A stretch of DNA of 40,301 bases from PVC group bacterium (GCA_043804695.1 JAZDIV010000019.1:1-40301), one strand, 5' to 3'; positions 7,955 to 30,032 are shown, numbered from the stretch's first letter. Notes: generated by a model not told the origin, from the sequence alone. Made by a program: numbers and translations.

Positions 7955-8086
7955 CTCGGATTCCCTCAGTTGCCGTCACTGTAACAAAACACCGGGGAAA
8001 GAAAAAGTGAAAAGGCGGTTTTCCTCCGATCCGGACCGACACTCCGCCGCACCGCCGGAACCAGGAGCGATGGTTATTTTTACGGC

Positions 8087-8115
8087 TTGACGGGCATTAT
8101 CTTTGGGGGTATTTT
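8087..8115 (+). promoter_or_regulatory. Putative sigma70 promoter of the tRNA-Val/tRNA-Asp operon
   Basis: TTGACG-17 nt-TATTTT upstream of tRNA-Val. Confidence 0.45.
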
Positions 8116-8149
8116 CCCCATAAAAATGTTCCGGAGGAGAATTTTTACC

Positions 8150-8221
8150 GGGCGGTTAGCTCAGCGGGAGAGCGCTACCCTTACAAGGTAGATGTCACTG
8201 GTTCAAATCCAGTACCGCCCA
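8150..8221 (+). tRNA. tRNA-Val(TAC)
   Basis: GGGCGGT/ACCGCCC acceptor stem, anticodon arm CTACC-CTTACAA-GGTAG, T-loop GTTCAAATC; CCA not encoded. Confidence 0.95.
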
Positions 8222-8338
8222 TAAATTTTTGCTGACGCAAAAATTTATATTTCCTTTTTGGCCCTAAATTGATAGAAGATTATAGATCCAAGGGGATACA
8301 GAACGGCAATCTGATTTCTGGTTATCTTGATATATCCA

Positions 8339-8412
<74 letters not shown>

Positions 8413-8417
8413 TTTTT

Positions 8418-8451
8418 AAAAAGCCTGGAAGCGAGAGCTTCCAGGCTTTTT
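8418..8451 (+). terminator. Intrinsic terminator after tRNA-Asp (left end of cassette 1)
   Basis: AAAAAGCCTGGAAGC-gaga-GCTTCCAGGCTTTTT. Confidence 0.85.
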
Positions 8452-8587
8452 AAAATTTGGAGTTCCACCAATTCTCTTCTAAGGCCTCCTCGTAACTTTT
8501 TTATGTAGAGCTTCCAACAAGCATGTGGTATAAATCATCTTTAGATTGAAACTTTGCATTTTACTGATCAAGCAATGGAGGCTGATA

Positions 8588-8836
8588 ATGAAAGATGAAC
8601 AATTACTTGCACGAATTGTGTTAAATCCTAAGATTATGGTTGGGAAACCGGTTATTCGGGGAACTCGTCTAACCGTGGACTTCATTCTGAATTTACTCGC
8701 TCATGGGACGACTGAAGCTGAAATTTTAAATGAGTATGAAGGTCTTACTTATGAAGACATTCAGGCTTGCTTCCTTTTCGCGACTAAATCCTTAAAAGAT
8801 ACTGCTTTTATGCCTTTGGGTGTGGAGACCGTGTAA
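8588..8836 (+). CDS. DUF433 family antitoxin
   Basis: RIVLNPKIMVGKPVIRGTRLTVDFIL...YEGLTYEDIQACFLFA signature; GGAGG RBS before ATG 8588. Confidence 0.9.
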   Translation: MKDEQLLARIVLNPKIMVGKPVIRGTRLTVDFILNLLAHGTTEAEILNEYEGLTYEDIQACFLFATKSLKDTAFMPLGVETV

Positions 8837-9187
8837 ATGCGTTTTCTGGTTGATGAATGTACCGGACCGGTAGTGGCGAAGTGGCTGAGAGAGCAAGGTC
8901 ATGAGGTATTTTCAGTTTTTGATGAGGCACAAGGACTTGATGACGATGCTGTAATTCAGAAGGCTTTGGAAGGAAACTGGATTTTGATCACCAACGACAA
9001 AGACTTTGGGGCGAAGGTATATCGAGATCGGATTCTTCATGCGGGGGTTATATTACTTCGCATGGAAGATGAACGGAATCAAATCAAGATAAATGCCCTT
9101 GCTCAATTGCTTGATCAATATAGAGATCGTTTAGGGAATAATTTTGTTGTCGTCACAGAAACCCAGGTTAGATTTGCCGGCATCTAA
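8837..9187 (+). CDS. DUF5615 PIN-like toxin
   Basis: MRFLVDEC...LDDDAVI...ILITNDKDFG...HAGVILLR; adjacent to DUF433 gene. Confidence 0.9.
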   Translation: MRFLVDECTGPVVAKWLREQGHEVFSVFDEAQGLDDDAVIQKALEGNWILITNDKDFGAKVYRDRILHAGVILLRMEDERNQIKINALAQLLDQYRDRLGNNFVVVTETQVRFAGI

Positions 9188-9214
9188 ATCAGGGGCTCGT
9201 TAAGACAGACATAT

Positions 9215-9301
9215 CTTCCGGTGCCCAGCCCTCACTGTTCGGAAGCAAATGTTGAGGAAATCCCAGATTAACCACGCTCTGAGACACCCGTCGTCCCCGT
9301 T
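9215..9301 (+). repeat. Cassette-end repeat A, copy 1 (87 bp)
   Basis: CTTCCGGTG..CACTGTTCGGAAG, then TCCCAGATTAACCACGCTCTGAGA, then CCCGTCGTCCCCGTT (identical to 8400-8414). Confidence 0.95.
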
Positions 9302-9304
9302 AGC

Positions 9305-9337
9305 AAGCCCGGAGGGGATTAACCCTCCGGGCTTTTT
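9305..9337 (+). terminator. Intrinsic terminator after repeat A1
   Basis: AAGCCCGGAGGG-gattaa-CCCTCCGGGCTTTTT. Confidence 0.85.
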
Positions 9338-9365
9338 ATTTAAAAAGATAATCTCTAAATTTATT

Positions 9366-10707
9366 GGTTCCTCGCTATTTTCAGTGGCCCGAGGGTTCAG
9401 TATAAGGCATCATCTTATGCATGAAGACACCAGAAAAGTTGTTTAGTGAGTTGTTGGGTCTGGGCCCGGCGTGGGCAGTTGAAGATGCGACATTCAAGGC
9501 CGAAAATAACATTGTAGAGTTGCGCGTTAAAGAGACGCCTGAGCTTTGGAAGATAGAACGTTGCCCCCATGATGGAAGCGATGGCGTGACCTGCCATGAT
9601 CACATACGAGGGCTTCGATGGCGACATTTGAACGTGTTCAACAAAGAAGTTGAAATCGTCTGCGATCTGCCTAGAGGGAAGTGTCCGAAGTGCGGAAAAG
9701 TATGGCGCGTGACCCCACCGTGGGAAGGACGGGCGAAGCATTTTACGAAAGAGTTTGAAGCCTTCGCCCTGACCTTGATGCGGGAGATGCCGGTTAAAAA
9801 GGCCGCGGAGATTCTTGGCGAGCAAGACACCAGAATGTGGCGGGTTGTGAGTGCCTACGTGGAAGAGGCGTACAAGAGCGTGGATATGTCGGATGTTGTT
9901 TCCGTCGGGGTTGATGAGATGTCTCGGGCGAAGGGCCATCGCTACCTGACAGTGTTTGCCGATTTGGTGCTCAAGCGAGTGCTTTTTGCAACTCCCGGGA
10001 AAGACAGCGAGACGTGGGCGGAGTTTGTCAAGGCGTTGGAGGACCATACGGGGCAGGCGGAATCGCTTACGAGCGTATCTATGGATATGAGCAAGGCCTA
10101 TGCGAAGGGAGTGCGCAAGAACTGCAGCAATGCCCGGATAGTCTACGACAAGTTTCACGTGATTGCCCATGCCAACAAAGCGGTGGATCTTGTCCGTCGG
10201 AGCGAAGCCCAGAGTGGCCGCCCGAAGGTTCGGGAGGCACTGGTCAAGAGTCGTTGGATCTGGCTTAAGAACCCGGAAAATCTGACCAAGAAACAGAAAG
10301 CCCGATTGAAGCGGATCGACCAGGATATGCTGCTGACCGGAAGAGCATACCAGATGCGGCTGGCGCTGCAGGAGATTTACCGGCTCGGTTCTGTCACTGA
10401 GGCGGCCAAGCGATTTGGCGAATGGTGCCGCTGGGTTCAACGAGAAGCTCGCAGAGCCAACCGATGGCTTCTTTACCATATGTCCCAGGTTGCCGATATG
10501 ATCGAATCCCATATCGCTGGAATCCTGGCGCACTGGGATCAGGGTGTGACCAATGCTTTTATGGAAGGGATTAATAGTGTTTTCTCCGCTGTTCGACGCA
10601 AGGCTCGTGGGTATCGAAGCTCCCGGAATATGATTACTATGCTCTACTTTGTCGCCGGCAAACTTCCTTCACCTGCTGAACTCAGCCACTGAAAATAGCG
10701 AGGAACC
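9366..10707 (+). mobile_element. ISL3-family insertion sequence, intact
   Basis: Perfect 23-bp TIR GGTTCCTCGCTATTTTCAGTGGC; 8-bp target duplication AATTTATT (9358-9365 and 10708-10715). Confidence 0.95.
9421..10692 (+). CDS. ISL3 family transposase
   Basis: Zinc-finger Cys motifs, VGVDE, SMDMSKAY, YDKFHV, TNAFMEGINS, ARGYRS. Confidence 0.95.
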   Translation: MKTPEKLFSELLGLGPAWAVEDATFKAENNIVELRVKETPELWKIERCPHDGSDGVTCHDHIRGLRWRHLNVFNKEVEIVCDLPRGKCPKCGKVWRVTPPWEGRAKHFTKEFEAFALTLMREMPVKKAAEILGEQDTRMWRVVSAYVEEAYKSVDMSDVVSVGVDEMSRAKGHRYLTVFADLVLKRVLFATPGKDSETWAEFVKALEDHTGQAESLTSVSMDMSKAYAKGVRKNCSNARIVYDKFHVIAHANKAVDLVRRSEAQSGRPKVREALVKSRWIWLKNPENLTKKQKARLKRIDQDMLLTGRAYQMRLALQEIYRLGSVTEAAKRFGEWCRWVQREARRANRWLLYHMSQVADMIESHIAGILAHWDQGVTNAFMEGINSVFSAVRRKARGYRSSRNMITMLYFVAGKLPSPAELSH

Positions 10708-10739
10708 AATTTATTTCTCTAAATTTTTTTGTTGCATGT

Positions 10740-10757
10740 GTTCACATATATGTTAAC
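10740..10757 (+). promoter_or_regulatory. Palindromic operator/promoter of HigBA copy 1
   Basis: GTTCACATATATGTTAAC, conserved at 20744-20765 before copy 2. Confidence 0.6.
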
Positions 10758-10764
10758 TTATGTT

Positions 10765-11115
10765 ATGAGAACAATTATCTTCTATCGAACGGAATCGGGT
10801 AACTGTCCGGTTGAAAAATTCCTTGATTCCCTTAATCCGAAGCAGGCGCAAAAAGTTCTTTGGGTTTTGCAGTTGGTAGAAGAATTGGATCAAGTACCGG
10901 CGCAATATTTCAAGAAGCTGGTTAATACCCAAGATATTTGGGAAGTCCGGGCTCAGGCCGGCAAGAAAATCTTTCGCTTGCTCGGCTTCTATGACGGGTC
11001 CAGATTGATTGTTTTAAACCACGCTTTTCAGAAGAAGACTCAAAAAACACCGGCCGGTGCTATTGCTCTGGCTGAAAAGAGAAAGCGAGATTTCCTGAGG
11101 AGGAAGAAGAAATGA
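10765..11115 (+). CDS. RelE/ParE (HigB/Gp49-like) toxin, copy 1
   Basis: IWEVR...IFRLLGF...IVLNHAFQKKTQKTP motif; toxin-first order. Confidence 0.9.
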   Translation: MRTIIFYRTESGNCPVEKFLDSLNPKQAQKVLWVLQLVEELDQVPAQYFKKLVNTQDIWEVRAQAGKKIFRLLGFYDGSRLIVLNHAFQKKTQKTPAGAIALAEKRKRDFLRRKKK

Positions 11116-11387
11116 GTGATGTTCGAAAATACGTAAAAACCCGAAAAGCACGGGACCCACAATTTGCGGAAAACTTCGATATCGGCTATGCTGATTTCAA
11201 GATTGGGATTTTATTCAAACAGGCGCGGGAAAGTGCCGGCTTGACCCAGGAAGAAGTAGCTAAAAAGTTGAATACTCAAAAATCTGCGATTTCCAGAATT
11301 GAGAATCACGCGGAGGATATCCGTTTATCCACTCTGGAAAAATTCGCCAAGGCATTGGGAAAGCAGGTCAGAGTTCAAGTTACATAA
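11112..11387 (+). CDS. XRE-family HTH antitoxin (HigA-like), copy 1
   Basis: ARESAGLTQEEVAKKLNTQKSAISRIEN HTH; 4-nt overlap with toxin. Confidence 0.9.
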   Translation: MSDVRKYVKTRKARDPQFAENFDIGYADFKIGILFKQARESAGLTQEEVAKKLNTQKSAISRIENHAEDIRLSTLEKFAKALGKQVRVQVT

Positions 11388-11403
11388 TCGCCACTAAAGA
11401 AAT

Positions 11404-11490
11404 CTTCCGGTGCCCATCCCTTACCGATTGGAAGCTGATCTTCAGATAATCCCAGATCAACCACGCTCTGGGACACCCGTCATGCCCGTT
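11404..11490 (+). repeat. Cassette-end repeat A, copy 2 (87 bp)
   Basis: CTTCCGGTGCCC...GGAAG...TCCCAGATCAACCACGCTCTGGGACACCCGTCATGCCCGTT. Confidence 0.95.
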
Positions 11491-11492
11491 GG

Positions 11493-11534
11493 CTCCTCCG
11501 GGGAAGTGTTTCCCCCGGAGGAGTTTTCTTTTTT
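11493..11534 (+). terminator. Intrinsic terminator after repeat A2
   Basis: CTCCTCCGGGG...CCCCGGAGGAG followed by a T-rich tract. Confidence 0.8.
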
Positions 11535-11553
11535 CCCATCTTGAAAAATCCTC

Positions 11554-11582
11554 TTGCATCCCCCCCAGGGATATCGTATCTT
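11554..11582 (+). promoter_or_regulatory. Putative sigma70 promoter of mazEF
   Basis: TTGCAT-17 nt-TATCTT. Confidence 0.5.
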
Positions 11583-11609
11583 CATTGTAGATACCAAAGG
11601 AGGCTCACT

Positions 11610-11852
11610 ATGCAAACCAAAGTTCAAAAATGGGGGAACAGTCTGGCCCTGCGGATTCCCAAGGTTCTGGCTCTGGATGCCCATATCAAGGAAGGCTCTC
11701 TGGTCGATATAGCTGTTTCAAACGGGGAGATTGTAGCCAAACCGACCAAGAAAGCTGTCTTTGATCTAAAAGAACTTGTAAGACAGATCACTCCGAAAAA
11801 TGTTCACAGCGAAATTGAAACCGGCGAACCCGTAGGCCGGGAGTCCTGGTAA
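11610..11852 (+). CDS. mazE: AbrB/MazE antitoxin
   Basis: MQTKVQKWGNSLALRIPK...ITPKNVHSEIETGEPVGRESW; AGGAGG RBS. Confidence 0.92.
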   Translation: MQTKVQKWGNSLALRIPKVLALDAHIKEGSLVDIAVSNGEIVAKPTKKAVFDLKELVRQITPKNVHSEIETGEPVGRESW

Positions 11853-12196
11853 TGAAAAAACGGTACGTTCCTGAGCGGGGCGATGTGGCCTGGCTTACTT
11901 TCACACCACAGGCCGGACATGAGCAAGCGGGGAGACGACCGGCTCTGGTCATCTCGCCGGCTCTTTATAACAAAAAAGTCGGTCTGGCGATTTTTTGTCC
12001 GATTACTTCGAAAGTTAAAGGCTATCCTTTTGAAGTAGAAATCCCGAAAGGCCTGAAGGTCGAGGGGGTTGTGCTTTCGGATCAGGTCAAGAGCTTGGAC
12101 TGGAGGGCAAGAAAAGCGAGTTTTTGTTGCAAGTTGCCCGAAGACGTATTCTCTGAAGTCGTCAATAAAATCGCCAGCCTGATTTTCACTGAATAA
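11852..12196 (+). CDS. mazF: MazF/PemK endoribonuclease toxin
   Basis: YVPERGDVAWLTFTPQAGHEQAGRRPALVISP...CPITSKVKGYPFEV...DQVKSLDWRAR. Confidence 0.93.
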   Translation: MKKRYVPERGDVAWLTFTPQAGHEQAGRRPALVISPALYNKKVGLAIFCPITSKVKGYPFEVEIPKGLKVEGVVLSDQVKSLDWRARKASFCCKLPEDVFSEVVNKIASLIFTE

Positions 12197-12365
12197 CTAA
12201 TCCATATTCCCCTTGGTTAAAATACTCATCAGCGTTATAGTTAATTGCATTGGCAATAAGTAATCGCTAATGTCAAACACCTGGAAAGATGAAAAATAGG
12301 TGTACAAAAATTTTTTGTCAAAATTCAGTCAACTACCCACTTTCTGGCCAAGTTATTGGGTTTAA

Positions 12366-15300
12366 TTGGAGAGCGCTAAGTTGAGAAAGGCCACTTTTAT
12401 CCTGACGGCGAGTATCTTTCCGGCCATTCTTCTCTTCTCTTCCCCATCGGCAGTTACTGCGGCCGAATGGTCGGAACCGACCGATATCGTCGCCCCTTCT
12501 TCCACCTTGAACAAGATTCCCCAGATCGCTCTCGACCCCGCCGGCAATCCCCACGTCACCTGGTACGGCAAGGACGCTTCCTCCAACTACCGGATATGGT
12601 ATGCGACGAAGAACGGTTCCGGCTGGACAACCGCTACCAATATCTCCGGCCCTTCCACTCCCACCTTGAACCGCGACCCCCGGATCGCTCTCGACTCCGG
12701 CGGGAATCCCCATATCGCCTGGGCCGGATCGGATGGAACAACCTACCGGATATATTACGCGGAAAATACCGGCTCCGGTTGGACGGCCGCCACCAACATC
12801 TCCGGGGGTTCGCCCCCCACCAGCAACCAGCTCCCCCAGATCGCGATCGACTCCTCTGGCCACCCCCACGTCACCTGGTACGGGAACGACGGCTCGACCA
12901 ATCGGATCTACTACGCGAAAAATACCGGCACCGGCTGGACGGCGGCCACCAACATATCCCCGGGCGCAGCCCCCACCTCCAACCAGAACCCCCAGATGGT
13001 AATTGACTCCGGCGGGTATCCCCACGTCACCTGGTTCGGATCTAACGGCACCTATAACCGGGCATATTACGCCCGGCAGACCGCAGCGGGCTGGACTGCC
13101 CCCACGGATGTTCTCATGGATCTCTGGAGTCCCTATGTGCAACATTGCGCCTATCCCCTGATCGGGCTGGACTCGGCCGACGATCCCAATATCGTGTATA
13201 TGGGGAATACTCCCGATCTGGGGAACTGCCTCTTCTCTTCATATTTAGCCGATCCCGGAGGGGTCTGGGCCAGCGGTTTACTAGATCAGGCCGAAAGCGT
13301 GGGGATAATGCCCGGAGAGTTGGTGGTGGATTCCGTCAACCGTCCCCACGTCGTGATGAGCTATCTCGGCTGGGGGATGGTGGCCTATTCATGGTCCGGT
13401 GACCGGGTGAACTGGTTCTCCCCGAAATTTTTCAACGTGCCGGGGGCCTCGGACCACGGAACTCCCCGGCTGGCTCTGGATACCGGCAACAACCCCCACG
13501 TCATCTTTGCGGCATATGTGGGCGGTGTCTCCCGGATATATTACACAGCAGCAAGCGGAGCGGTCTGGCCCGCCCCGACGGATATTACACTGGCCGGGGT
13601 CGGGGGAAACTCCAACGCCGTGATCGTACTGGACTCCCACGACCTTTCCCACGTTGTCTGGAAGGGGGGATACGATCCAAACAGCCGGATCTACTACTCC
13701 GCCCTGGTCACCACCCCCACGCCCACGCCGACACCGTTCGGCTACCGGACCCCCTCGCCTTCGGCAACTCCCAGTGCGACGCCGACGCCTTCGGTGACGC
13801 CAACGATGACACCATCTGTAACCCCGACGCCGACACCATCGATCACGCCGACGCCTTCAATTTCGCCGACCCCGAGTGTCACCTCCACCCCCTCGGTTAC
13901 TCCGCCGCCGACCGTGACGCCACCCCCATTAGGTGAGATTTTCGAGGTGCCGATCGTGGTCACCCTCAACTACTCGGGAAGCGGGGACACCGCCGTCTTC
14001 GCCGACAACTACGATAACTATAACTGCATCAAATTCCCGGACCTGGAGACCGGACCCGACGTGGTCTACGCCTTCGAGGTCGCTACCCCGGGGACGATAT
14101 CGATCGATCTCTCCGGCTTTACCTTCGATCTCGACCTCCTCCTCTGCCAGGAGCCCAGCTTCAATGCCTGCGTGGCCAAATCCGATAACGAATGGACCTG
14201 CCCCGAGCATATCTCCTACGCGGCCTCGCCTCAGACCTACTACACGGTGGTCGACGGCTTCGACGGGGCGATGAGTTTCTACAATATCACCATCTCTTTT
14301 ACCACCCCGACGCCGTCACCATCACCGAGTACGACGCCCACTCCCTCGGTGACCCCCACGCCACCGCCCACCATGACACCAACGCCCTCGGTCACACCGA
14401 CGCCTTCTGTCACACCTGCACCCAGTGTTACGCCTACTCCTTCAGTGACACCCACTCCTTCAGTAACGCCGACGCCCTCAGCGACGCCAACGCCTTCGGT
14501 AACTCCTACGCCCTCAGTTACGCCGACGCCCAGTGTCACCCCTACCCCATCGGCAACCCCGACACCTTCCGTTACACCGACGCCCAGCGTTACACCAACG
14601 CCGTCCGTCACTCCAACGCCTTCGGTAACTCCTCCGCCCTCAATGACGCCGACTCCCAGTGTCACTCCAACTCCATCGGTAACCCCTACGCCTTCAGTGA
14701 CCCCGACTCCAACGGTCACGCCTACGCCTTCCGTTACGCCGACGCCCAGTGTCACACCAACCCCGTCCGTTACTCCTACGTCTTCAGTGACCCCGACTCC
14801 AACGGTCACGCCTACGCCTTCCGTTACGCCGACGCCCAGTGTCACACCAACTCCTTCGGTTACACCCACGCCTTCAGTGACACCGACACCTTCGGTCACA
14901 CCGACATTGTCAGTTACGCCCACCTCTTCCGTGACACCGACACCTTCGGTGACTCCGACGCCGACGGCAGTTCCCTGTCTCTCGCCGCTGATGGTAAAAG
15001 ATATTAATTATATTGAAATCTTCGAGGTGAGGGCGTCAGTGAACAACGGCTGGTTCATCAGGGGGCTCTCCTGGAACGATTCCACCGACTTCGGTTATGT
15101 CCCCGACAAGCTCAACTTCTGGTTTGATGCCGGCCGATCGGCAAGCGAGACCCAACTCAAGTTCCGGATCGAGGAGGCGGCGGAGGTGATCGGGATTCAG
15201 GCCGGTGACAGGATCCGGATCGGGTACGACACCTACTACTACCTGGACGTGATCCTGCCGGAGGTTACGGTGGACGGGACGGTACTCTACGTGGGGCTGA

Positions 15301-16352
15301 ACGGGAGCACCTACACGGACCTTGCGCTCTGCTCTATCGCCAAGGGGACGCCGCCGCCGACGGTCACGCCCACGCTGACGCCCAGCCCGACGCCGTCGGT
15401 CACCCCGACCCCGAGTGTTACGCCGACACCGTCTCTAACTCCAACCCCCACCGCCTCAGTGCCTCCCAGCCCCACTCCGACCCCGAGCGCGGTGCCGACC
15501 GCTTCGGTCACGCCCACGCCTTCGCTACCTCCCACTCCGACTTCGACAGCCACACCTCCTCCCACCCCCACGCCCAGCCCCACCTGCGGTCCGACCATTG
15601 ACCCCCAGAGAGCGCTTACCGAGTCGGGGGACTATGACGGCGACGGGACGAGTGAGATCGCGATTTTCCGTCAAATCTCCGGCCTCTGGGCGATCCGGGG
15701 ATTAACGCGGATTCAATTCGGGGAGGGTACCGACCTGCCGGCCTCCGGTGATTACAATGGAGACGGGATAACGGATATCGCGATTTTCCGTCATAGCTCC
15801 GGCCTCTGGGCGGTCCGGGGATTGACCAGGGTTTACTTCGGGAATACCAATGATATTTCGATCCCCGGAGACTATGACGGTGACGGCTCTTGCGACATCG
15901 GCATCTTCCGGGACTCCTCCGGCCTGTGGGGGATCAGGGAAATTACCCGGACCTATTTCGGGACCGGGGGAGACTGGCCGGTGCCCGGCGACTTCGACGG
16001 GGACGATACCCGGGAGATCGCCGTCTTCCGGCAGGCATCAGGCCTCTGGGCGGTCCGGGGATTGAATAGAACATACTTTGGCGGCATCAACGACTGGCCC
16101 GCCGCCGCGGATTACTCAGGCGACGGGACCCGGGAGATCGCTATTTTCCGGCCTTGTACCGGTCTCTGGGCGCTGAAGGGATTGACCCGGATCTACTTCG
16201 GAAGATACACCGACTGGCCCCGGCCCGCGGATTACAACGGCGACCTGATGGATGATATCGGCATATTCCGGCCTGATTCAGCGCTGTGGGCTGTTAGAGG
16301 GGCAACCAGGATCTATTTCGGCACCAACGGCGACATCCCGGTAACGCGCTGA
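12366..16352 (+). CDS. Large secreted/surface protein: signal peptide, ~55-aa beta-propeller-like repeats, long Pro/Thr linkers, C-terminal FG-GAP-like module
   Basis: Repeated PQIALD..G.PHVTW...RIYYA..GSGWT units; TPTPSV tandem repeats; GDYDGDG..IAIFR..SGLWA repeats ending GDIPVTR; start codon uncertain. Confidence 0.8.
14305..14965 (+). repeat. 18-bp (TPTPSV) coding tandem repeat tract
   Basis: Dozens of TPTPSV units; an identical 70-bp block at 14692-14761 and 14782-14851. Confidence 0.9.
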
Positions 16353-16377
16353 TCAAGATAATTTAAACCGAGCAAAT

Positions 16378-16464
16378 CTTCCGGTGCCCGTCCCTCACCG
16401 TTCGGATGGCGATTTTGATGAAATCCCAGATTAACCACGCTCTGGGACACCCGTCATGCCCGTT
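16378..16464 (+). repeat. Cassette-end repeat A, copy 3 (87 bp)
   Basis: CTTCCGGTGCCCGTCCCTCACCGTTCGGATG...TCCCAGATTAACCACGCTCTGGGACACCCGTCATGCCCGTT. Confidence 0.95.
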
Positions 16465-16466
16465 AG

Positions 16467-16501
16467 AAAAGCCGGAGGGCATTATCCCCTCCGGCTTTTT
16501 T
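16467..16501 (+). terminator. Intrinsic terminator after repeat A3
   Basis: AAAAGCCGGAGGG...CCCTCCGGCTTTTTT. Confidence 0.85.
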
Positions 16502-16502
16502 A

Positions 16503-16574
16503 TTGGAATCGAAGGATTCCAAAACACGCAACACCCTGGTGTTGTCCCGGTCCAAGACCAGGATCGTCCCCGTT
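16503..16574 (+). repeat. Triple-hairpin repeat B, copy 1
   Basis: TTGGAATC-gaag-GATTCCAA, CAACACC..GGTGTTG, TCCCGGTC-caa-GACCAGGA, then TCGTCCCCGTT (same as tRNA-Asp 3' end). Confidence 0.85.
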
Positions 16575-16736
16575 AAAAAGATTCAGGCGGTTTTAAACCG
16601 CCTGAATCTTTTTAGTTCTAATTGTTTTTCTATAGCCATCCTCTCCCTTCCCATAGTTACTTTTTCTCCAGCCCTCAGCTTATTATGCTCCGTGCACGTC
16701 TTAGTTCGTAATATATTCCTCAATGCAGAAACCTAA

Positions 16737-18420
16737 CCCGGATTATTCATGAGAAAGTGAAAATTGAGGCATAAAAAATGGGAAAGCTCCAAGCATTCTG
16801 TTAGAATGCAATTAGTTACGGTAATAACCAAGGAGCTTTCCCATGATCACTATACCTCAGCAGGCTGTTTTATTTCCAGAACTATTTTCCAGGCCTGTTT
16901 CTGTCAGCTTTTCCAGGGACCATCTCAGCTCTGACGGAGGCTCGATTCTCCTGAAAGCCGTTGATCAAAAACTTGGCCTTACTCAGCTTGTCGCCGAAAC
17001 TTTTATTGACCGGCGGCAACCGGAAAAGATACGCCACGAAATCCTCGACCTTACCCGGCAGCGGCTCTTCAGCCTGGCTTCCGGTTACCCCGACTGTAAC
17101 GATGCCGGAAGATTGAAACAGGACCCGGTGCTCAAACTCATGTGTGATCGTGATCCGATTACGGGAGATGATCTCGGCTCCCAGCCGACACTTTCCCGGT
17201 TTGAAAACAGCGTCACTCGTTTTCAACTTCTTGAACTATCTACCCGGCTGGCCGAAAAAGTTCTTCGCCACCAGCAAAGCCGCCGGCGCGGCAAGCACAA
17301 ACCGAAACGAATCATCATCGACATTGATCCAACCCACGACGCGACTCACGGGCAACAGCAGATGACATTTTTTAACGGCTATTACGATACCTGGTGTTAC
17401 CTGCCCTTGGTCGTTACCATCTCCTTTAATAAAGAGCGCAGGAAGTACCCCATCGCCGTGATTCTTCGTCCGGGCAACGCCGGAGCAATGACCGGAACAC
17501 TGGCGATCCTTAAACGACTTGTCCCTCGTATCAGATCCTTTTTCCCGAAAGGACGCCTCTTCTTTCGAGCTGACGGCGCTTACTGCAACCCGGATCTCCT
17601 GGACTGGCTGGAAGAAAAATCGATTTATTACACAATACCGATCGGCTCCAACCCCGTACTCGAAAGAATCTCAGCCCCCTGGATGGATCTGGTCCGTCAG
17701 GCGACGCATCTCCATGGCAAGAGCGTTACCATCTACCGAGAAGATTCCTACCAGGCCGGTACCTGGTCTCATCCCCGCCGTCTTGTCTATAAGGCGGAAG
17801 TCCTGGTCCAGTGGAGCGATTACCGGGATAATGCCCGGTACACCATCACCACCCTCCCACATAACTTGGGCGCGGAAGGTGTTTTCCGTTTCTATTACGG
17901 TCACTCCGACATCGAGAATTCGATCAAAGATTTCAAGAATGACCTCAGCCTGGACCGAACGAGCTGTACCTCCTTTTTAGCAAATCAACTCCGGGTTATC
18001 TGGTCTCTATCCGCGTATATTCTGATGCAGGCTCTCCAGGAACGGATCAGCGATCCGATCCTATCGCGGGCGACGATGGGTACATTACGCGAACGTCTCT
18101 TTAAAATCGCCGTCCGGGTAAAGGAATCGACCCGTCAGATCACCTTTCTTTTGACAACGCACTACCCGTGGCAAGGCACCTGGTTGGCGTGCGCCCGTAG
18201 TGTCGGCGCTGTTGCCGGATGAGGCTGGAAAACACAAGTAAATTTTACTGCTCCTATTCCTTTGGGGCGGTGTCTGTTTCAAAACGTTCTTTTGCCCTGT
18301 GCCCTATCCGAAAAGTTTCTCTCCTGTTCCCGGTTTTCGATTTAATCTATCCGATGGAGTAAAGATTCACAATTTGATGATAAAAATAGCCATATTTTCA
18401 GACTTCATGAATAATCCGGG
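16737..18420 (+). mobile_element. IS1380-family insertion sequence, intact
   Basis: 16-bp TIR CCCGGATTATTCATGA / TCATGAATAATCCGGG; 4-bp target duplication CTAA on both sides. Confidence 0.93.
16843..18222 (+). CDS. IS1380 family transposase
   Basis: LSSDGG, GYPDCNDA, LGSQPTLSRFEN, IDIDPTHDATHGQQQ, FRADGAY, ENSIKDFK motifs. Confidence 0.95.
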   Translation: MITIPQQAVLFPELFSRPVSVSFSRDHLSSDGGSILLKAVDQKLGLTQLVAETFIDRRQPEKIRHEILDLTRQRLFSLASGYPDCNDAGRLKQDPVLKLMCDRDPITGDDLGSQPTLSRFENSVTRFQLLELSTRLAEKVLRHQQSRRRGKHKPKRIIIDIDPTHDATHGQQQMTFFNGYYDTWCYLPLVVTISFNKERRKYPIAVILRPGNAGAMTGTLAILKRLVPRIRSFFPKGRLFFRADGAYCNPDLLDWLEEKSIYYTIPIGSNPVLERISAPWMDLVRQATHLHGKSVTIYREDSYQAGTWSHPRRLVYKAEVLVQWSDYRDNARYTITTLPHNLGAEGVFRFYYGHSDIENSIKDFKNDLSLDRTSCTSFLANQLRVIWSLSAYILMQALQERISDPILSRATMGTLRERLFKIAVRVKESTRQITFLLTTHYPWQGTWLACARSVGAVAG

Positions 18421-18680
18421 CTAAGGCAGAGATTTTCTTTGCTTTGAACGACAACGACAGGGTATTATTTATCTGTAAACATAGTAGATAGAGTCATGAT
18501 TGTGGAGCGTAAAAATGGACCGATTCGTTTGAATCGGCGTTGTATTATATTTTGCGATAATTGCCTGTAAGACAATTTTCCGGAAATAGAATACGATGCC
18601 TCGGGATGTGGAGAATGAGCGGTTTGGGCTTGCTTAGTGTAGTTTATTTCTGTATAAGATAATGCCTCCTAGGGGTATTA

Positions 18681-19502
18681 ATGAATACAAAACTAAAACA
18701 ACCGGCCAAGGGGCGACTGGGAAATTTGGAGCAACGGTTCCTTTCCTATGCCCAGTTTATGAAGCTGTCGCTGGTTCGGGTCGGACAGTTGCGGGAAGTA
18801 CTTGAACTGACCGACGAACAAGAGCGCAAAGTACTTTCACGCCTGGCACGGGGGGGGACCATCATTCGCCTCAAGCGCGGGGTGTATCTTGTGCCTTCTC
18901 AATTGCCTCTGGGCGGAGTTTGGAATCCGGGCGAGGCGGTCATCCTTCGGGAATTGATGCGCGCGTGCGACAATGGCCGGTGCCAGTTTTGCGGATGGCC
19001 GGTTTTCAACCGATACGGTTTTACCGAACAGGTCTCCGCTCGGATCTTTGTCTATAACAACCGTATCTACGGGCCCCGGATTATCGGCGGCCGGGATTTC
19101 ACCTTCATCAAGGTTCCGGATCGCCGACTCGGTGGAACGGAGAAAGCGATGATGCCCGACGGCCAGGAAAGCCTCTTGCCCACCAAAGCCCGCGCGCTCG
19201 TGGATGCGGTGGTCGAATGGCCACGCTTTGGCACGCTTCCTAAAGCGTTCGGATGGATTCGAGAAACGGTCGAGAAAGACCCCGGCATGGCCGCATGCAT
19301 AGCTGACGCAGCCTGCAGTTTTGGCAATCAGGGGACGATTCGGCGCATCGGATATGTTCTGGATAAGGCGGGTCTCTCGAATGCATCTCGATGCAAGCTG
19401 CGTGGGAGCTTGCGGAGCAAGACGTCGGTCATTCCACTTGTGCCCGCCCGGCCTGCTCGCGGACCCGTCAATGCTAATTGGGGGACCATAGATAATGAAT
19501 GA
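18681..19502 (+). CDS. abiEi: AbiEi-family antitoxin/transcriptional regulator (type IV TA)
   Basis: wHTH LSRLARGGTIIRLKRGVY, YGFTEQV, IRRIGY and terminal W..IDN motifs; upstream of AbiEii. Confidence 0.8.
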   Translation: MNTKLKQPAKGRLGNLEQRFLSYAQFMKLSLVRVGQLREVLELTDEQERKVLSRLARGGTIIRLKRGVYLVPSQLPLGGVWNPGEAVILRELMRACDNGRCQFCGWPVFNRYGFTEQVSARIFVYNNRIYGPRIIGGRDFTFIKVPDRRLGGTEKAMMPDGQESLLPTKARALVDAVVEWPRFGTLPKAFGWIRETVEKDPGMAACIADAACSFGNQGTIRRIGYVLDKAGLSNASRCKLRGSLRSKTSVIPLVPARPARGPVNANWGTIDNE

Positions 19503-20397
19503 CGTAGTTCTCCAGGCCGCGGAAAAGTGGCTGGACAACGCGGAATTGTTTCGGCAAGCCGTGGAACGAACCGCTCGGGATCATGGGTTTGCCGGAGACC
19601 TCATCGAAAAAGACGCCTTCTGTTCGGTGGTGCTGGCGGTTCTTGCGGCGAACTTGCCTGAGTCTGTGGTATTCAAGGGTGGAACCTGTTTGAGCAAAGT
19701 GTACACGGACTTCTATCGCCTCAGCGAAGACTTGGATTTTGCGATCCCCGTGCCGCTGCAATCGTCCCGCGCCGGACGCCGCCGTCTCATGAAACCCGTC
19801 AAGGCTCTATGCGACAGCATGCCGGCCCACTGTCCTCAGCTTGCCGTTCTCGATCCCATGCGTGGCGCGAATCAGTCCACGCAATACATTCAGACGCTGG
19901 GGTATCAGTCGCGGATTACCGGCAAAACAGCGCAAATCAAGGTGGAATTCGGACTGCGGGAACCAACTCTGATAGCACCGCGGGTTGAACCGGCCGGCAC
20001 CTTGCTTGTAAGCCCTCTGACCGGCCGGCCAGTCTTTCCCTCGTTTCCTGTTCGGGTCATGGCTCTCAAGGAGATGTGGGGAGAGAAAATACGCGCTGCA
20101 CTTTGCCGGCGAGAGCCCGCGATACGCGACTTCTTCGACCTGGACTATGCTTTGCGGACTAACCAATTCGACCTGTCCGCCCCTGATCTCATCACCTTGG
20201 TCGGACGGAAACTCGCGGTGCCGGGGACCGGTCCTCCGCAACTGACGGATGAACGGCGCGCGGAACTGGACCGCCAGAAAGAGACCGACCTGAAACCGGT
20301 CTTGCGCACTCGCAACTTCGATCAATTTGATCTGGACAGAATCTGGACCGCGCTGATCGCAATGGCAAACCGTCTACGGGAAACTAGACATCATTAA
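19495..20397 (+). CDS. abiEii: AbiEii/AbiGii nucleotidyltransferase toxin
   Basis: LIEKD, VFKGGTCLSK, RLSEDLDF, EKIRAAL..R...RDFFDL motifs. Confidence 0.92.
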   Translation: MNDVVLQAAEKWLDNAELFRQAVERTARDHGFAGDLIEKDAFCSVVLAVLAANLPESVVFKGGTCLSKVYTDFYRLSEDLDFAIPVPLQSSRAGRRRLMKPVKALCDSMPAHCPQLAVLDPMRGANQSTQYIQTLGYQSRITGKTAQIKVEFGLREPTLIAPRVEPAGTLLVSPLTGRPVFPSFPVRVMALKEMWGEKIRAALCRREPAIRDFFDLDYALRTNQFDLSAPDLITLVGRKLAVPGTGPPQLTDERRAELDRQKETDLKPVLRTRNFDQFDLDRIWTALIAMANRLRETRHH

Positions 20398-20572
20398 CGC
20401 CTTTCTTAAAGAATAATAAGGAGTCAAATTGGTGTGATTGCCTGGATCCTCAGCCGGGTTGAAAAGTACAACTATAAATGCCCGGACAAGCTTCACATCC
20501 CGGGGACATCCCCCCGGAAAAGAAGCAACGACGTTTTCATAAACGGCCACAAAATCAGCAAGCCGGACAGAT

Positions 20573-20659
20573 CTTCCGGTGCCCGTCCCTCACCGTCCGG
20601 AAGCTGATTCTCAAAGAATCCCAGATCAGCCACGCTCTGGGATGTCCGTCGTCCCCGTT
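20573..20659 (+). repeat. Cassette-end repeat A, copy 4 (87 bp)
   Basis: CTTCCGGTGCCCGTCCCTCACCGTCCGGAAG...TCCCAGATCAGCCACGCTCTGGGA; 20646-20661 identical to 8401-8416; no terminator follows. Confidence 0.95.
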
Positions 20660-20770
20660 TTAAGCTTTGATGACGGATATCTCAAAGCGTTTGCTGGTTG
20701 TGTAATCGCGGGAGAACGTCTTTCCAAAATTTTTTTATTGCCGAAGTTCACATATATGTTAACTTACGTT

Positions 20771-21121
20771 ATGAGAACAATTATCTTTTACCGGACAGAA
20801 TCGGGTAGTTGTCCGGTTGAAAAATTTCTTGATTCCCTTAATCCGAAGCAGGCGCAGAAAGTTCTCTGGGTTTTACAGTTGGTCGAAGAACTGGATCGGG
20901 TACCGGCGCACTATTTCAAGAAACTGGTTAATACCGAAGATATCTGGGAAGTCCGGGTCCGGGTCGGCAAAGAGATCTTCCGCTTGCTCGGCTTCTTCGA
21001 TGGGCCAAGATTGATTGTTGTAAACCACGCTTTTCAGAAGAAGACACAAAAAACGCCGGCCGGAGCCATAGCTCTGGCGGAAAAGAGAAAGAGGGATTAC
21101 CTGAGGAGAAAGAAGCAATGA
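20771..21121 (+). CDS. RelE/ParE (HigB/Gp49-like) toxin, copy 2
   Basis: 13 differences in 116 aa from 10765-11115 by manual count. Confidence 0.9.
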   Translation: MRTIIFYRTESGSCPVEKFLDSLNPKQAQKVLWVLQLVEELDRVPAHYFKKLVNTEDIWEVRVRVGKEIFRLLGFFDGPRLIVVNHAFQKKTQKTPAGAIALAEKRKRDYLRRKKQ

Positions 21122-21393
21122 GTGATGTCCGAAAATATGTAAGATCCAGAAAGGCCCGTGACCCGGAATTCGCGGAAAATTTCGATATCGGCTATGCTGA
21201 TTTTAAGATCGGGGTTCTTCTCAAACAAATACGTGAAAGTGCCGGTCTGACTCAGGAAGAAGTGGCGAAGAAGCTGAATACCAGGAAATCGGCGATTTCC
21301 CGGATTGAGAATCACGCCGAGGATATTCGTCTCTCCACTCTGGAAAGATTCGCTAAGGCTTTGGGAAGGAAGATCAGAGTTCAAGTTACGTAA
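21118..21393 (+). CDS. XRE-family HTH antitoxin (HigA-like), copy 2
   Basis: 11 differences in 91 aa from 11112-11387 by manual count. Confidence 0.9.
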   Translation: MSDVRKYVRSRKARDPEFAENFDIGYADFKIGVLLKQIRESAGLTQEEVAKKLNTRKSAISRIENHAEDIRLSTLERFAKALGRKIRVQVT

Positions 21394-21410
21394 TCGCTAA
21401 CCAGACAAAT

Positions 21411-21497
21411 CTTCCGGTGACCGTTCCTTACTGTGTGGAAGCCAATTTTGAAGACATCCCAGATTAACCACGCTCTGGGATGTCCGTCATGCCCGTT
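21411..21497 (+). repeat. Cassette-end repeat A, copy 5 (87 bp)
   Basis: CTTCCGGTGA...GGAAG...ACATCCCAGATTAACCACGCTCTGGGATGTCCGTCATGCCCGTT. Confidence 0.95.
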
Positions 21498-21501
21498 AGC
21501 G

Positions 21502-21533
21502 AAGCCGGAGGGGAGTATCCCCTCCGGCTTTTT
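21502..21533 (+). terminator. Intrinsic terminator after repeat A5
   Basis: AAGCCGGAGGGGA-gta-TCCCCTCCGGCTTTTT. Confidence 0.85.
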
Positions 21534-21535
21534 CA

Positions 21536-21607
21536 TTGGAATCGAAGGATTCCAAAACCAGCAGCACCCGGAGGGTGTTGTCCCGGTCAAAGACCGGGAT
21601 CGTCCCC
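21536..21607 (+). repeat. Triple-hairpin repeat B, copy 2
   Basis: TTGGAATCGAAGGATTCCAA...CAGCACCC-gga-GGGTGTTG-TCCCGGTC-aaa-GACCGGGA-TCGTCCCC. Confidence 0.85.
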
Positions 21608-21672
21608 TCCGAAAAAGATTAAAATCTTACTTGCGCATTGAAAAAGATATGGTATCATCTATAATACCAAGC

Positions 21673-22101
21673 ATGACAATATACCAAATCGTTATCGATA
21701 CAAATGTTTTTGTTTCAGCTCTGAGATCAAAACGAGGGGCTTCTTATAAGCTGTTCAAGCTTCTTGGCAAAGGGAAGTTCAAGGTTAATGTATCTGTTCC
21801 TTTAATTCTTGAATACGAAAAGACTGCGAAAGAAATCATAAAAACCGCCTCACTCAGTATCAGGGATATCGACGACATTATTGATTATATATGTGCGACT
21901 TCCAAGCATCAAAAGATTTGTTACCTTTGGCGTCCATTTTTAAATGATCCGAAGGATGATATGGTCCTGGAATTAGCGGTGTCAGCGCATTGTGATTACA
22001 TTGTTACTTACAATAGAAAGGATTTCCAGGATATCGATGATTTTGGAATACGTGTAATCAACGCAAGAGAATTCCTGAAAAAAATAGGAGAACTGCCATG
22101 A
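21673..22101 (+). CDS. PIN-family putative toxin
   Basis: IVIDTNVFVSAL...LILEYE...DPKDDMVLELAV...IVTYNRKDF; start moved to the ATG downstream of the repeats. Confidence 0.9.
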   Translation: MTIYQIVIDTNVFVSALRSKRGASYKLFKLLGKGKFKVNVSVPLILEYEKTAKEIIKTASLSIRDIDDIIDYICATSKHQKICYLWRPFLNDPKDDMVLELAVSAHCDYIVTYNRKDFQDIDDFGIRVINAREFLKKIGELP

Positions 22102-22334
22102 GTTCTATCAGCTTGAGGTTGCCGGATTCCCTGCATGAAACCGCTCGCGAACTGGCAAAAAAGGATCACATTTCCATCAACCAGTTAGTTGCGACAGCTT
22201 TGGCGGAGAAGATATCCGCGCTCATGACTCAGGGTTATCTGGAAGAACGGGCCAAGCGGGGGAGACGGAGTAAATTCGACCGCGCTCTGGCGAAAGTTTC
22301 AAACATCGAACCGGAACCAGCGGATCGGCTTTAA
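22098..22334 (+). CDS. Ribbon-helix-helix (HicB/CopG-like) antitoxin
   Basis: ISLRLPDSLHETARELAKKDHISINQLVATALAEK; 4-nt overlap with PIN gene. Confidence 0.85.
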   Translation: MSSISLRLPDSLHETARELAKKDHISINQLVATALAEKISALMTQGYLEERAKRGRRSKFDRALAKVSNIEPEPADRL

Positions 22335-22540
22335 TCTGTCGCTCATTATATCCAAGCTCCGGGCCATCTCCATCTTCCCGGTCACACTCCCGCCCTCTTT
22401 CGGAAAACGAAATTTTCCGTCTGAAACCGGATCTTCGACAAGATCACCTACCTTGACGCCTTAAGACACCGGGCGTGGCGCCTTCAGCAACACCTACGGT
22501 GACGCCATAAGTCAACTTTTTCGCTTCAAACCGGACAAAT

Positions 22541-22627
22541 CTTCCGGTGCCCATCCCGCACCATCTGGAAACGTATCCTCATGGAATCCCATGTCAACCA
22601 CGTTCTGGGACACCCTTCATGCCCGTT
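22541..22627 (+). repeat. Cassette-end repeat A, copy 6 (87 bp)
   Basis: CTTCCGGTGCCCATCCCGCACCATCTGGAAA...TCCCATGTCAACCACGTTCTGGGACACCCTTCATGCCCGTT. Confidence 0.92.
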
Positions 22628-22630
22628 TCT

Positions 22631-22666
22631 AAAAAAGCCGGGAAGCGATAGCGTCCCGGCTTTTTT
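22631..22666 (+). terminator. Intrinsic terminator after repeat A6, homologous to the tRNA-Asp terminator
   Basis: AAAAAAGCCGGGAAGC-gata-GCGTCCCGGCTTTTTT. Confidence 0.85.
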
Positions 22667-22783
22667 AGAATTGGAGTAAAAATTAATTTGTTAATGGTCT
22701 TGAAAAACTGTCGGATCTCTTATTATAATATATTTAGCTTATCGTTATATCTTTATCAATAAATAAACCAGGCGAGGGAACCG

Positions 22784-26590: not shown

Positions 26591-26678
26591 ATACTGGTTA
26601 TTGGAAAACTTGTTATTAGTAATTGCTAACCGGTATTAGAAACCGGTCGCCGCTTACCGATTACTGCTTACTGCTTTT

Positions 26679-26771
26679 CCCCCGGCGCCCGCCTTGCACC
26701 GTCCGGAAGTAAATCTTTAATATATCCCAGATCAACCACGCTCCCCGGTGACAACCGGGGTCATGCCCGTG
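26679..26771 (+). repeat. Cassette-end repeat A, copy 7 (93-bp variant)
   Basis: CCGGCGCCCGCCTTGCACCGTCCGGAAG...TCCCAGATCAACCACGCT-CCCCGGTGACAACCGGGG-TCATGCCCGT. Confidence 0.9.
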
Positions 26772-26806
26772 AAAAACCCCGAGGGGTTTTCCCCTCGGGG
26801 TTTTTT
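26772..26806 (+). terminator. Intrinsic terminator after repeat A7
   Basis: AAAAACCCCGAGGGG-tttt-CCCCTCGGGGTTTTTT. Confidence 0.85.
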
Positions 26807-26821
26807 ACGTTGATATGATGG

Positions 26822-27124
26822 ATGAGAACCCGCACTGTCATTTTGATAAAATATGTGGTAATATTGAACGATCACGGCGTTGAATACTTATTAGTCGGGG
26901 CCTACGCTGTTATTTACTATACCACCCCGAGGTACACCAAGGACGTGGACGTGTGGGTGAGGCCTACTCCTGAAAACGCTCATAACGTCTGGTTGGCATT
27001 AGAGGAATTCGGCGCACCGTTGGTTGATGTAACCGAAAAAGACTTTACCGACAGGGAAATGGTTTGTCAAATAGGAATTGAAAAGGCGGATCCGGCGAGA
27101 GGGAAAGGAGGGACGGAGCGGTGA
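26822..27124 (+). pseudogene. Probably truncated nucleotidyltransferase (DUF6036-like)
   Basis: LNDHGVEYLLVGAYAV.YY..PRYTKDVDVWV.PTPENA...AL.EFG is the N-terminal half of this family; family-like sequence appears to stop after QIG. Confidence 0.65.
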
Positions 27125-29841: not shown

Positions 29842-29903
29842 TTGGAATTAGGGAATAGGGATTGGGGATTAGGGAATGGGGATTGGGGATTAGGGAATGG
29901 GGA
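29842..29903. repeat. Heptamer tandem repeat (GGGA[AT]T[AGT]-type)
   Basis: TTGGAATTAGGGAATAGGGATTGGGGATTAGGGAATGGGGATTGGGGATTAGGGAATGGGGA. Confidence 0.8.
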
Positions 29904-29939
29904 CTGTGGACTGCTTACCGATTACTGCTTACTGCTTTT

Positions 29940-30032
29940 CCCCCGGTGCCCGCCCCTCACCGTCCGGAAGCAAATCTTAAAGGTATCTTAAATTAACCAC
30001 GCTCCCCGGTGACAACCGGGGTCATGCCCGTT
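29940..30032 (+). repeat. Cassette-end repeat A, copy 8 (93-bp variant)
   Basis: CCGGTGCCCGCCCCTCACCGTCCGGAAG...TTAACCACGCT-CCCCGGTGACAACCGGGG-TCATGCCCGTT. Confidence 0.9.

Follow-up and report, generated by a model that had tools for sequence, protein, structure and literature searches.

A tandem array of nine cassettes at the 3' end of a tRNA-Asp gene, probably built by CcrB/DsiB-like large serine recombinases

Introduction

The layout of the locus described here matches that of the Dehalococcoides ssrA islands, which, with the SCC islands, are the closest described case. According to McMurdie et al. 2011 (PMC3146451), the ssrA islands are arranged in tandem, 20 bp of the ssrA 3' end being repeated at their borders, dsiB, which codes for their large serine recombinase (LSR), is oriented on the reverse strand with its 3' end overlapping attL, and 15 of the 31 islands have no integration module, which the authors read as cis-mobilisable units moved by accretion. 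The two systems share tandem islands downstream of a small stable-RNA gene with direct repeats of its 3' end, a CcrB-like LSR at the left edge, on the reverse strand, whose stop codon is set by the upstream sequence, the lack of a recombinase in about half or more of the islands, and a fixed difference between gene end and repeat from which the crossover can be placed. They differ in the target and the repeat (ssrA and 20 bp there, tRNA-Asp or tRNA-Glu and a whole severed gene tail of ~105 nt here), in the accompanying genes (DsiA and RecF-, ParB- and Mom-like genes there, a DnaG-like primase and small HTH proteins here) and in the phylum, which is here Auribacterota, of the PVC group.

The composite staphylococcal SCC and SCCmec islands, which are driven by Ccr recombinases and some of whose features are described in PMC3146451, resemble the present locus in their CcrB-type LSR, in their insertion at the very 3' terminus of a conserved gene, which survives it, and in their tandem arrays, which include recombinase-less units and are marked by short direct repeats. 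They differ in that the recombinases found here score far below the CcrB cut-off and no CcrA-like partner was seen beside them, and in that the SCC target is rlmH, whereas here it is a tRNA, with the att site inside the recombinase gene.

Integrons and CALINs are alike in layout, with a fixed anchor, co-oriented cassettes that carry a recombination site at their 3' end, many toxin-antitoxin systems and a cassette content that varies between close relatives. Integrons, however, employ a tyrosine enzyme and a folded attC, whereas here the enzyme would be a serine recombinase and the site is double-stranded and coding; unlike integron cassettes, those described here each bring a terminator and, presumably, a promoter of their own. 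The same genomes also harbour true integrons, whose attC sites are ordinary. In tycheposons, as described by Hackl et al. (bioRxiv 10.1101/2020.12.28.424599), new insertions at a tRNA push the older ones outward, partial tRNA copies lie between them and degenerate remnants accumulate, as in the present array, and the LSR element reported below also has a primase-type replication gene; tycheposons depend on tyrosine recombinases, whereas none is linked to the arrays here. A literature search of limited coverage returned no tRNA-Asp or tRNA-Glu array of this type and no case from the Auribacterota. The principle is already known. The novelty lies in the target and the phylum, in cassettes that are miniature and operon-sized, and in a well-defined tail repeat of ~105 nt.

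Results

The tRNA-Asp anchor

The window, by which we mean the whole stretch of 40,301 nucleotides analysed here (PVC group bacterium, GCA_043804695.1 JAZDIV010000019.1:1-40301), contains an intact tRNA-Asp(GTC) gene, preceded by a tRNA-Val gene (Table 1). The original prediction started from the exact identity of the 15-mer CCCGTCGTCCCCGTT at 8400-8414 with 9287-9301 and of 8401-8416 with 20646-20661, and both identities were confirmed. In the tRNA, 8400-8404 form the 3' strand of the T stem and 8405-8411 the 3' strand of the acceptor stem, followed by the discriminator G8412 and by TT; the last 13 bases of tRNA-Asp and this TT (8400-8414) are the left half and core of attB. When up to three mismatches are allowed, the window holds 8 matches to the 15-mer where 2.79 would be expected, and a count of 8 was reached in 1 of 100 shuffles. 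Apart from chance-level matches, an Rfam scan of 8000-27000 (E <= 1) returned the two tRNAs and nothing else.

The tRNA-Asp sequence is 100% identical in 6 relatives, and over the relatives and metagenome loci the acceptor stem varies by lineage: CATCCCC, which closes some of the repeats described below, is the native tRNA-Asp end in G003 and in four metagenome loci. The suggestion that another tRNA ending in GTCATGCCCG might serve as an alternative target found no counterpart, since no such tRNA is present among the 36 of this genome (none ends in CATGCCCG; the assembly is 88% complete) or, by pattern search, in the 14 same-order genomes (G000-G013, G000 being the genome of this window). The same search gave 11 matches to a CATGCCCG-type end in seven more distant genomes; one of them was tRNA-like (G024:C8), and ARAGORN called no tRNA there.

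Two further observations concern tRNA-Asp genes elsewhere. Upstream of tRNA-Asp on contig C26 of G001 (L244:1040-1560, minus strand) lie three identical 160-nt tandem units, each made of tRNA-Asp bases 1-53, then a T arm with two hairpin insertions and the end CCCGTCATAAATG; these are tandem tRNA-Asp pseudogenes ahead of the real gene. In two distant families of the phylum (L236 of G032 and L237 of G039), a partial tRNA-Asp 3' end with an inserted hairpin stands ~100 nt behind the gene, which suggests that insertions at tRNA-Asp also occur outside the lineage that bears the repeat.

The P1 repeat and the nine cassettes

The 15-mer is the terminal part of a repeat of ~105 nt, which we named P1. 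An nhmmer profile built from six copies and searched against the 2.97-Mb assembly found nine copies in the window, all on the plus strand, with E values from 9e-33 to 5e-12, and a tenth on contig C117; every remaining match had E >= 0.014. The tenth copy (C117:8604-8706, L001) is more diverged and is preceded by PAD_porph-like and FG-GAP genes. Its contig, 24.6 kb long, yielded no tRNA, and the copy may represent a second array or a fragment of one.

The nine copies, each lying directly after the last stop codon of its unit, divide the region 8415-31975 into nine units whose cassette genes are all on the plus strand (Table 1). Their cores fall into the variants that had been listed beforehand: GTCATGCCCGT(T) in copies 2, 3, 5, 7 and 8, degenerate forms in copies 6 (CCCTTCATGCCCGTT) and 9 (TCCGTCATTCCCGT), and the tRNA type in copies 1 (CGTCCCCGTT) and 4. 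Two distinct P1 backgrounds share the tRNA-type core CGTCCCC, and the two variable core positions assort independently of the left and right flanks. The claim that similarity ends right after CCCGT(T) stands for the family as a whole, in which no conserved column follows the T after CCCG in 42 aligned copies; some subsets depart from it, copies 3 and 5 being followed by flanks that are 84% alike over ~110 nt. The flank behind tRNA-Asp itself resembles those behind P1 copy 6 and the C117 copy.

Each unit opens with a G+C-rich, terminator-like hairpin followed by a T run, the sequence of which differs between junctions. After the core, 5 of the 47 type-A junctions keep the final 18 nt of P1 in inverted form, here called the P' arm; the other 42 show the terminator-like hairpin only. 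At the start of cassette 5 this arm lies at 20672-20689, with a spacer of 21 nt and 3 mismatches. The ~110-nt module behind copies 3 and 5 (16465-16574 and 21498-21609) comprises the terminator hairpin, two small hairpins and a T-arm-like hairpin, and ends in CGTCCCCGT(T), a further look-alike of the tRNA-Asp end; in cassette 4 this second tRNA-Asp-like end reads GATCGTCCCCGTT, and in cassette 6 it reads GATCGTCCCCTC (21598-21609). The module is also found directly behind tRNA-Asp in G006 and in many metagenome loci, and may be another type of scar or a spare landing site.

Table 1. Coordinates of the tRNA-Asp gene and of the units of the array, counted from the first letter of the window.
Feature	Position	Strand	Content
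tRNA-Asp(GTC)	8339-8412	+	intact; ARAGORN, Rfam tRNA model 68.7 bits
Cassette 1	8415-9301	+	terminator-like hairpin; DUF433 + DUF5615/PIN-like toxin-antitoxin pair (Pfam); P1 copy 1 (9197-9301)
P1 copy 1 as coding sequence	9197-9301	-	..NGDDGCLRAWLIWDFLNICFRTVRAGHRKICLS, then stop; severed LSR C-terminal tail; same for the other eight copies
Cassette 2	9302-11490	+	hairpin; inserted ISL3-family transposase (9421-10692); Gp49/HigB-like + HTH pair; P1 copy 2 (11388-11490)
Cassette 3	11491-16464	+	composite; hairpin; MazE/MazF (11541-12196); 1328-aa BNR/FG-GAP protein (12366-16352); P1 copy 3 (16357-16464)
Cassette 4	16465-20659	+	~110-nt module (16465-16574); IS4-like transposase; AbiEi/AbiEii (18681-20397); P1 copy 4 (20553-20659)
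Cassette 5	20660-21497	+	P' arm; Gp49/HTH pair, the second HigB/HTH pair (Pfam); P1 copy 5 (21393-21497)
Cassette 6	21498-22627	+	~110-nt module; PIN_3 + HicB/CopG-like pair; P1 copy 6 (22523-22627)
Cassette 7	22628-26770	+	hairpin like that behind the tRNA; 1268-aa GH38 + FG-GAP protein; P1 copy 7 (26682-26770; type B)
Cassette 8	26771-30033	+	100-aa ORF; GH9 cellulase-like protein (906 aa); P1 copy 8 (29943-30033; type B)
Cassette 9	30034-31975	+	PAD_porph (agmatine/peptidyl-arginine deiminase-like) protein, 505 aa; P1 copy 9 (31884-31975; degenerate core)

Cassette 3 is composite, and no repeat now separates its MazEF part from its BNR/FG-GAP part. The transposase inserted inside cassette 4 (DDE_Tnp_1_4) occupies 16843-18222. 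Cassette 9 is the last unit, and behind it lies tRNA-Pro (32279-32354, minus strand). The gene of the 1328-aa protein has long stretches of 18-nt, six-residue coding repeats and 120-nt FG-GAP repeats (13700-15600 and 15620-16250); an FG-GAP unit is common to it and the GH38 protein of cassette 7 (25840-25990), and FG-GAP C-terminal modules are recurrent among the cassette proteins of many arrays.

Arrays in related genomes and metagenomes

P1 is present in 11 of 41 related genomes, this one included, and in all 8 other genomes of the family; in G031 the matches are fragments of 26-27 nt only. In 7 of the 10 P1-bearing relatives (G001, G003, G004, G005, G006, G007 and G010) the repeat lies downstream of tRNA-Asp and is co-oriented with it. 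G008 has its array behind tRNA-Glu(TTC), and there the repeat ends resemble tRNA-Glu instead (CCGTCAGGGTCG vs CCGTCGGGGTCG), while in G002 and G009 the copies are on short contigs without a tRNA. A metagenome scan added 21 contigs with P1, 8 of which reach the upstream tRNA-Val/tRNA-Asp pair, and no other kind of tRNA was seen on them. The tie between these repeats and tRNA 3' ends, on which the original prediction depended, is thus borne out outside this genome, with tRNA-Asp in 7 of 10 relatives, tRNA-Glu in one more and the tRNA pair on 8 of 21 metagenome contigs.

The largest other array belongs to G001, of the same genus, which has seven P1 copies at the same tRNA and an entirely different cargo (GIY-YIG, DUF4238, LRR protein, POT transporter, HicA and SatD among others). 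Cassettes have been reshuffled, homologous ones being found at differing ranks: MazEF, third in the window, is first behind the tRNA in L192 and L196, and in L192 it alone forms the cassette right behind tRNA-Asp, with its own terminal P1; the DUF433/PIN unit, first in the window, stands behind a P1 copy in metagenome locus L178; and HigBA units occur at many ranks, the body of that in cassette 2 being 75-87% identical to cassettes at other positions in at least 9 other loci. The distal flank of the window (tRNA-Pro, VTT, PCMT) was not found within 1.5 kb of tRNA-Asp in the relatives.

A wider scan of genome contigs with an 18-base pattern gave 116 stretches, mostly due to chance; 80 loci were retrieved for nhmmer, which detected P1 only in those of this lineage. 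Viral contigs yielded 7 pattern matches and 2 weak nhmmer matches inside a phage coding region, which are attributed to chance, and contained no relative of the LSR locus of G002 described below. Among public sequencing runs, three hold 10-12% of the sampled words, and these come solely from contigs of related organisms with 90-95% likeness, among which neither a circular form nor an empty site was seen. In one contig of run X3, position 11490, where copy 2 ends, is joined to position 20729 within cassette 5; this junction fits reshuffling in a related organism, and with 35 letters on its shorter side it is too weak to count.

Position of the crossover

Two pairs of homologous cassettes allow the exchange point to be approached. 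In the DUF433/PIN pair (window and L178) the left sides differ up to CCCG and the right sides are alike from the next base, and in the MazEF pair, which stands behind P1 copy 2 in the window and behind tRNA-Asp in L192, the two loci are alike only rightward of CCCG. Because the members of each pair differ to the left of CCCG, where one has the tRNA and the other P1, and agree from the following base, strand exchange would take place within CCCG/T, at or just after the discriminator base, with a precision of 4-5 bases. As a result, the tRNA retains the acceptor strand it had, and the right junctions keep the variant of the element (CATGCCC, CGTCCCC or CATCCCC). A crossover in a short core at the tRNA 3' extremity, which leaves the tRNA intact and lets each right junction retain its own CATG variant, had been proposed from this one sequence, and the comparison of the same cassettes behind tRNA and behind P1 in different genomes supports both parts of that proposal. 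The last 13-15 bases of P1 are tRNA-like because the left half-sites of attP and attB have nearly the same sequence; in copies 1 and 4 the two left halves are identical over 15-16 bases.

P1 is a gene tail cut from a large serine recombinase

On its minus strand, P1 holds the terminal ~33 codons of a CcrB-like LSR gene together with the left half-site of attP, and the stop codon of this tail is the left edge of the repeat. In metagenome locus L195 an LSR reading frame runs on through P', the core and the whole of P1, reading ...RALRHQSGGHDGCPRAWLIWDILALSFRTVRDGHREIRFFVYQ up to a stop codon at the left edge of P1. This frame is free of stops in codons 2-31 in all 42 gapless P1 copies, whereas stops interrupt the remaining five frames in 15 to 42 copies. 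Mean column entropy is 0.58, 0.46 and 0.88 at codon positions 1, 2 and 3, and the AWLIWD-like peptide is retained in frame in 56 of 58 copies. Copies 7 and 8 are of type B, in which the change stays in frame (GHDPGCHRGAWLIWD); in copy 8 an early stop cuts the tail frame.

The integrated LSRs of G002 and G009 have in common ...RAL(G/R)HRSY, after which tRNA-derived codons (GDDGTRTRN... and DPNGSRTRA...) replace the tail. A protein search with the tail alone found one more full-length LSR that retains it, P0001 (577 aa; tail 89% identical), which is nearly the protein of L195 and whose tail diverges from that of L195 past 21 residues. The identity of P1 as an LSR tail explains its length, its left edge as a stop codon and its right edge as the crossover, and also the conservation of its sequence without structural covariation. 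The bias towards third positions would imply that the copies diverged while still within working genes, and they therefore probably come from separate insertions and not from local duplication.

Large serine recombinases beside the sites

When the recombinases of this genome were searched by tblastn against 41 array-bearing loci, a single locus gave a match: L195, whose LSR has its end next to a P1 copy. Related LSRs, with 72% and 67% identity, lie directly against tRNA-Asp in G002 and against tRNA-Glu in G009. In all three cases (tRNA-Asp in G002, tRNA-Glu in G009, P1 in L195) the LSR gene is convergent with the tRNA or repeat and overlaps it, and between LSR and core there is a P' arm, so that the three sites have the same layout of an arm, 9-10 nt and the inverted arm. 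The P' arm matches the P1 subtype of the target (GGGACAC for Asp, GAGACAT for Glu). The proteins have Resolvase, Recombinase and Zn_ribbon_recom domains, and CcrB is the best NCBIfam match of all four LSRs tested, with 136-178 bits against a cut-off of 900. The G002 and L195 elements have in common a DnaG-like primase of 914-926 aa and carry small HTH proteins. LSRs of this clade were found in 2 of the 10 P1-bearing relatives (G002 and G009) and not in G001; no LSR element was recovered whole, with its two ends on a single contig.

The window encodes no recombinase of any kind, and tblastn found in it no LSR gene or fragment of an LSR body; its nine units are all without a recombinase and bounded by direct repeats of the tRNA end. 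The array is best read as a stack of attR scars from LSR elements, none of which is in the window, and the nine LSR-less units as passengers or remnants ('cis-mobilisable' cassettes).

Two recombinase genes of other contigs may be recorded here. The sole LSR of the genome (C49:330-2000, L203; 556 aa) shares 44% identity with the Asp-type LSR. Overlapping its 3' end, on the other strand, is an apparent tRNA 3' part ending in CCA; the genome's own tRNA genes have no encoded CCA. It is not linked to the tRNA-Asp array and may belong to another tRNA-targeting LSR element of different specificity. At the start of contig C32, beside metK, lies an integron integrase gene with an in-frame internal deletion (C32:273-1178, L004), whose product matches TIGR02249 at positions 2-110 and at the C-terminal end only, the catalytic middle being absent.

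Discussion

The observations are best accounted for, with a probability that we put at roughly 0.78, by a tandem stack of nine integrated units that occupies 8415-31975 at the 3' end of tRNA-Asp and was built by CcrB/DsiB-like LSR elements. The layout alone, with its small co-oriented cassettes, a repeat directly after the stop codon and, for most cassettes, a start with TT after G, could also suggest an integrase-less integron array (CALIN), in which P1 would be an unusual attC cut by IntI at G/TT and the tRNA end an attI-like or secondary site. The genome does hold one intI-like gene, which lies on C32 and codes for a truncated integrase (183 bits to TIGR02249, with the central part of the profile absent), IntI scores above its cut-off in 6 of 10 relatives with P1 compared with 5 of 30 without, and P1 copy 5 is closed by the stem CGCTAAC/GTTAGCG. 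The window, however, has no intI, P1 is found at none of 13 intI loci, and the true attC sites beside the intI of G001 are single hairpins of ~67 nt unrelated to P1. Folded as DNA, 9 of the 10 P1 copies of this genome form no single long hairpin and copy 5 alone closes in an R-like manner; the inverted repeats show no compensatory change, observed values equalling shuffled ones (two stem models, 42 copies), and over 58 copies no consistent pairing of a candidate R'' with the bases after GTT was seen. P1 is, besides, protein-coding on the opposite strand and continuous with the LSR gene. The integron reading is extremely improbable and in our view close to refuted, and the likeness to the G/TT crossover of integrons to which the original prediction had drawn attention proves superficial only, the repeat being the severed 3' end of a serine recombinase gene.

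Tandem elements with partial tRNA copies between them are typical of tyrosine-integrase islands (for tycheposons, bioRxiv 10.1101/2020.12.28.424599), and a phage, an ICE, a tycheposon or XerC/D acting in trans might be thought to recombine through a 7-bp overlap in the acceptor strand. The independent assortment of the two core positions is what heteroduplex repair in such an overlap would produce, and XerC and XerD are present in every genome checked, in this one on other contigs. The gene that abuts the junction is nevertheless an LSR and not a tyrosine integrase in three of three cases, and a tyrosine model does not predict a repeat that is the tail of an LSR gene; no tyrosine recombinase (PF00589) lies in or beside the arrays of G000, G001, G004, G007, G008 and G010, and tblastn found none in 41 array-bearing loci, G004 having Xer-type genes and fragments only. 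These facts make a tyrosine enzyme quite unlikely. Still less probable is that P1 would be a non-coding structured RNA, such as one belonging to a 3'-UTR or a terminator, or a REP/MITE-like repeat, which mimics the T arm and acceptor strand of a tRNA and is spread by a Y1 (HUH) enzyme or by homologous recombination. The consensus does contain two inverted repeats, almost every copy is followed by a terminator-like hairpin with a T run, and the genome has 6 Y1_Tnp matches. Against it, P1 matches no Rfam family and shows no stem covariation, 9 of the 10 genome copies are in one array behind one tRNA, the coding signal on the opposite strand is strong, and the hairpins that follow differ from junction to junction. 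The six Y1 transposases were considered as movers and set aside, none of them being linked to the array.

The mechanism that we propose for the LSR-built array combines the position of the attachment site in the recombinase gene with the position of the target at the end of the tRNA. The attP site would lie within the 3' end of the LSR gene, so that integration at the tRNA would split this gene: the LSR body would remain beside the tRNA and then read into it, while the last ~33 codons, with the left half-site of attP, would be carried to the right-hand extremity of the insert. A row of cassettes would result as such insertions recurred at the terminal bases of the tRNA. An LSR 'driver' integrated at the tRNA could then excise together with neighbouring cassettes by means of a more distal attR, take them to another genome and later leave alone, and its solo departure would generate terminator-led, LSR-less units such as those of the window. 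Catalysis by an LSR, the exact base of exchange and the driver and passenger route, including what moves the LSR-less cassettes, are inferences from sequence. Canonical serine integrases recombine attP with attB or attL with attR only, according to PMC3783163, and because of this restriction the movement of LSR-less units is not explained by sequence alone. The missing LSR body in the window, the small share of junctions with a P' arm (5 of 47), the finding of cognate LSRs in only 2 of the 10 P1-bearing relatives and in neither this genome nor G001, and the failure to see a circle, an empty site or a whole element likewise count against the model.

It is conceivable, though we think it doubtful, that the arrays are a working serine-recombinase counterpart of the integron, with functional orphan tails, and not a graveyard. 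Since attP and attB hardly differ in their left half-sites, each right junction (P1, core and terminator) is nearly an attB and could serve as a fresh landing site. If this were true, each cassette would be individually movable by an LSR in trans, and the split gene would act as a switch, a full LSR with its AWLIWD tail being made only from the circle or beside a resident P1.

The LSR-built array would mean that an integron-like store of genes for toxin-antitoxin systems, defence and glycan degradation, variable between strains, can be assembled without an integron. Its builder would be a serine recombinase that is cut in its own gene at each insertion and leaves a 'barcode' of ~105 nt, by which such islands are easy to find. 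Their tRNA-specific serine integrases, with short defined sites, could serve genome engineering. With this locus, the precedent set by the Dehalococcoides ssrA islands would reach further targets, tRNA-Asp and tRNA-Glu, and a little-known phylum, the Auribacterota.
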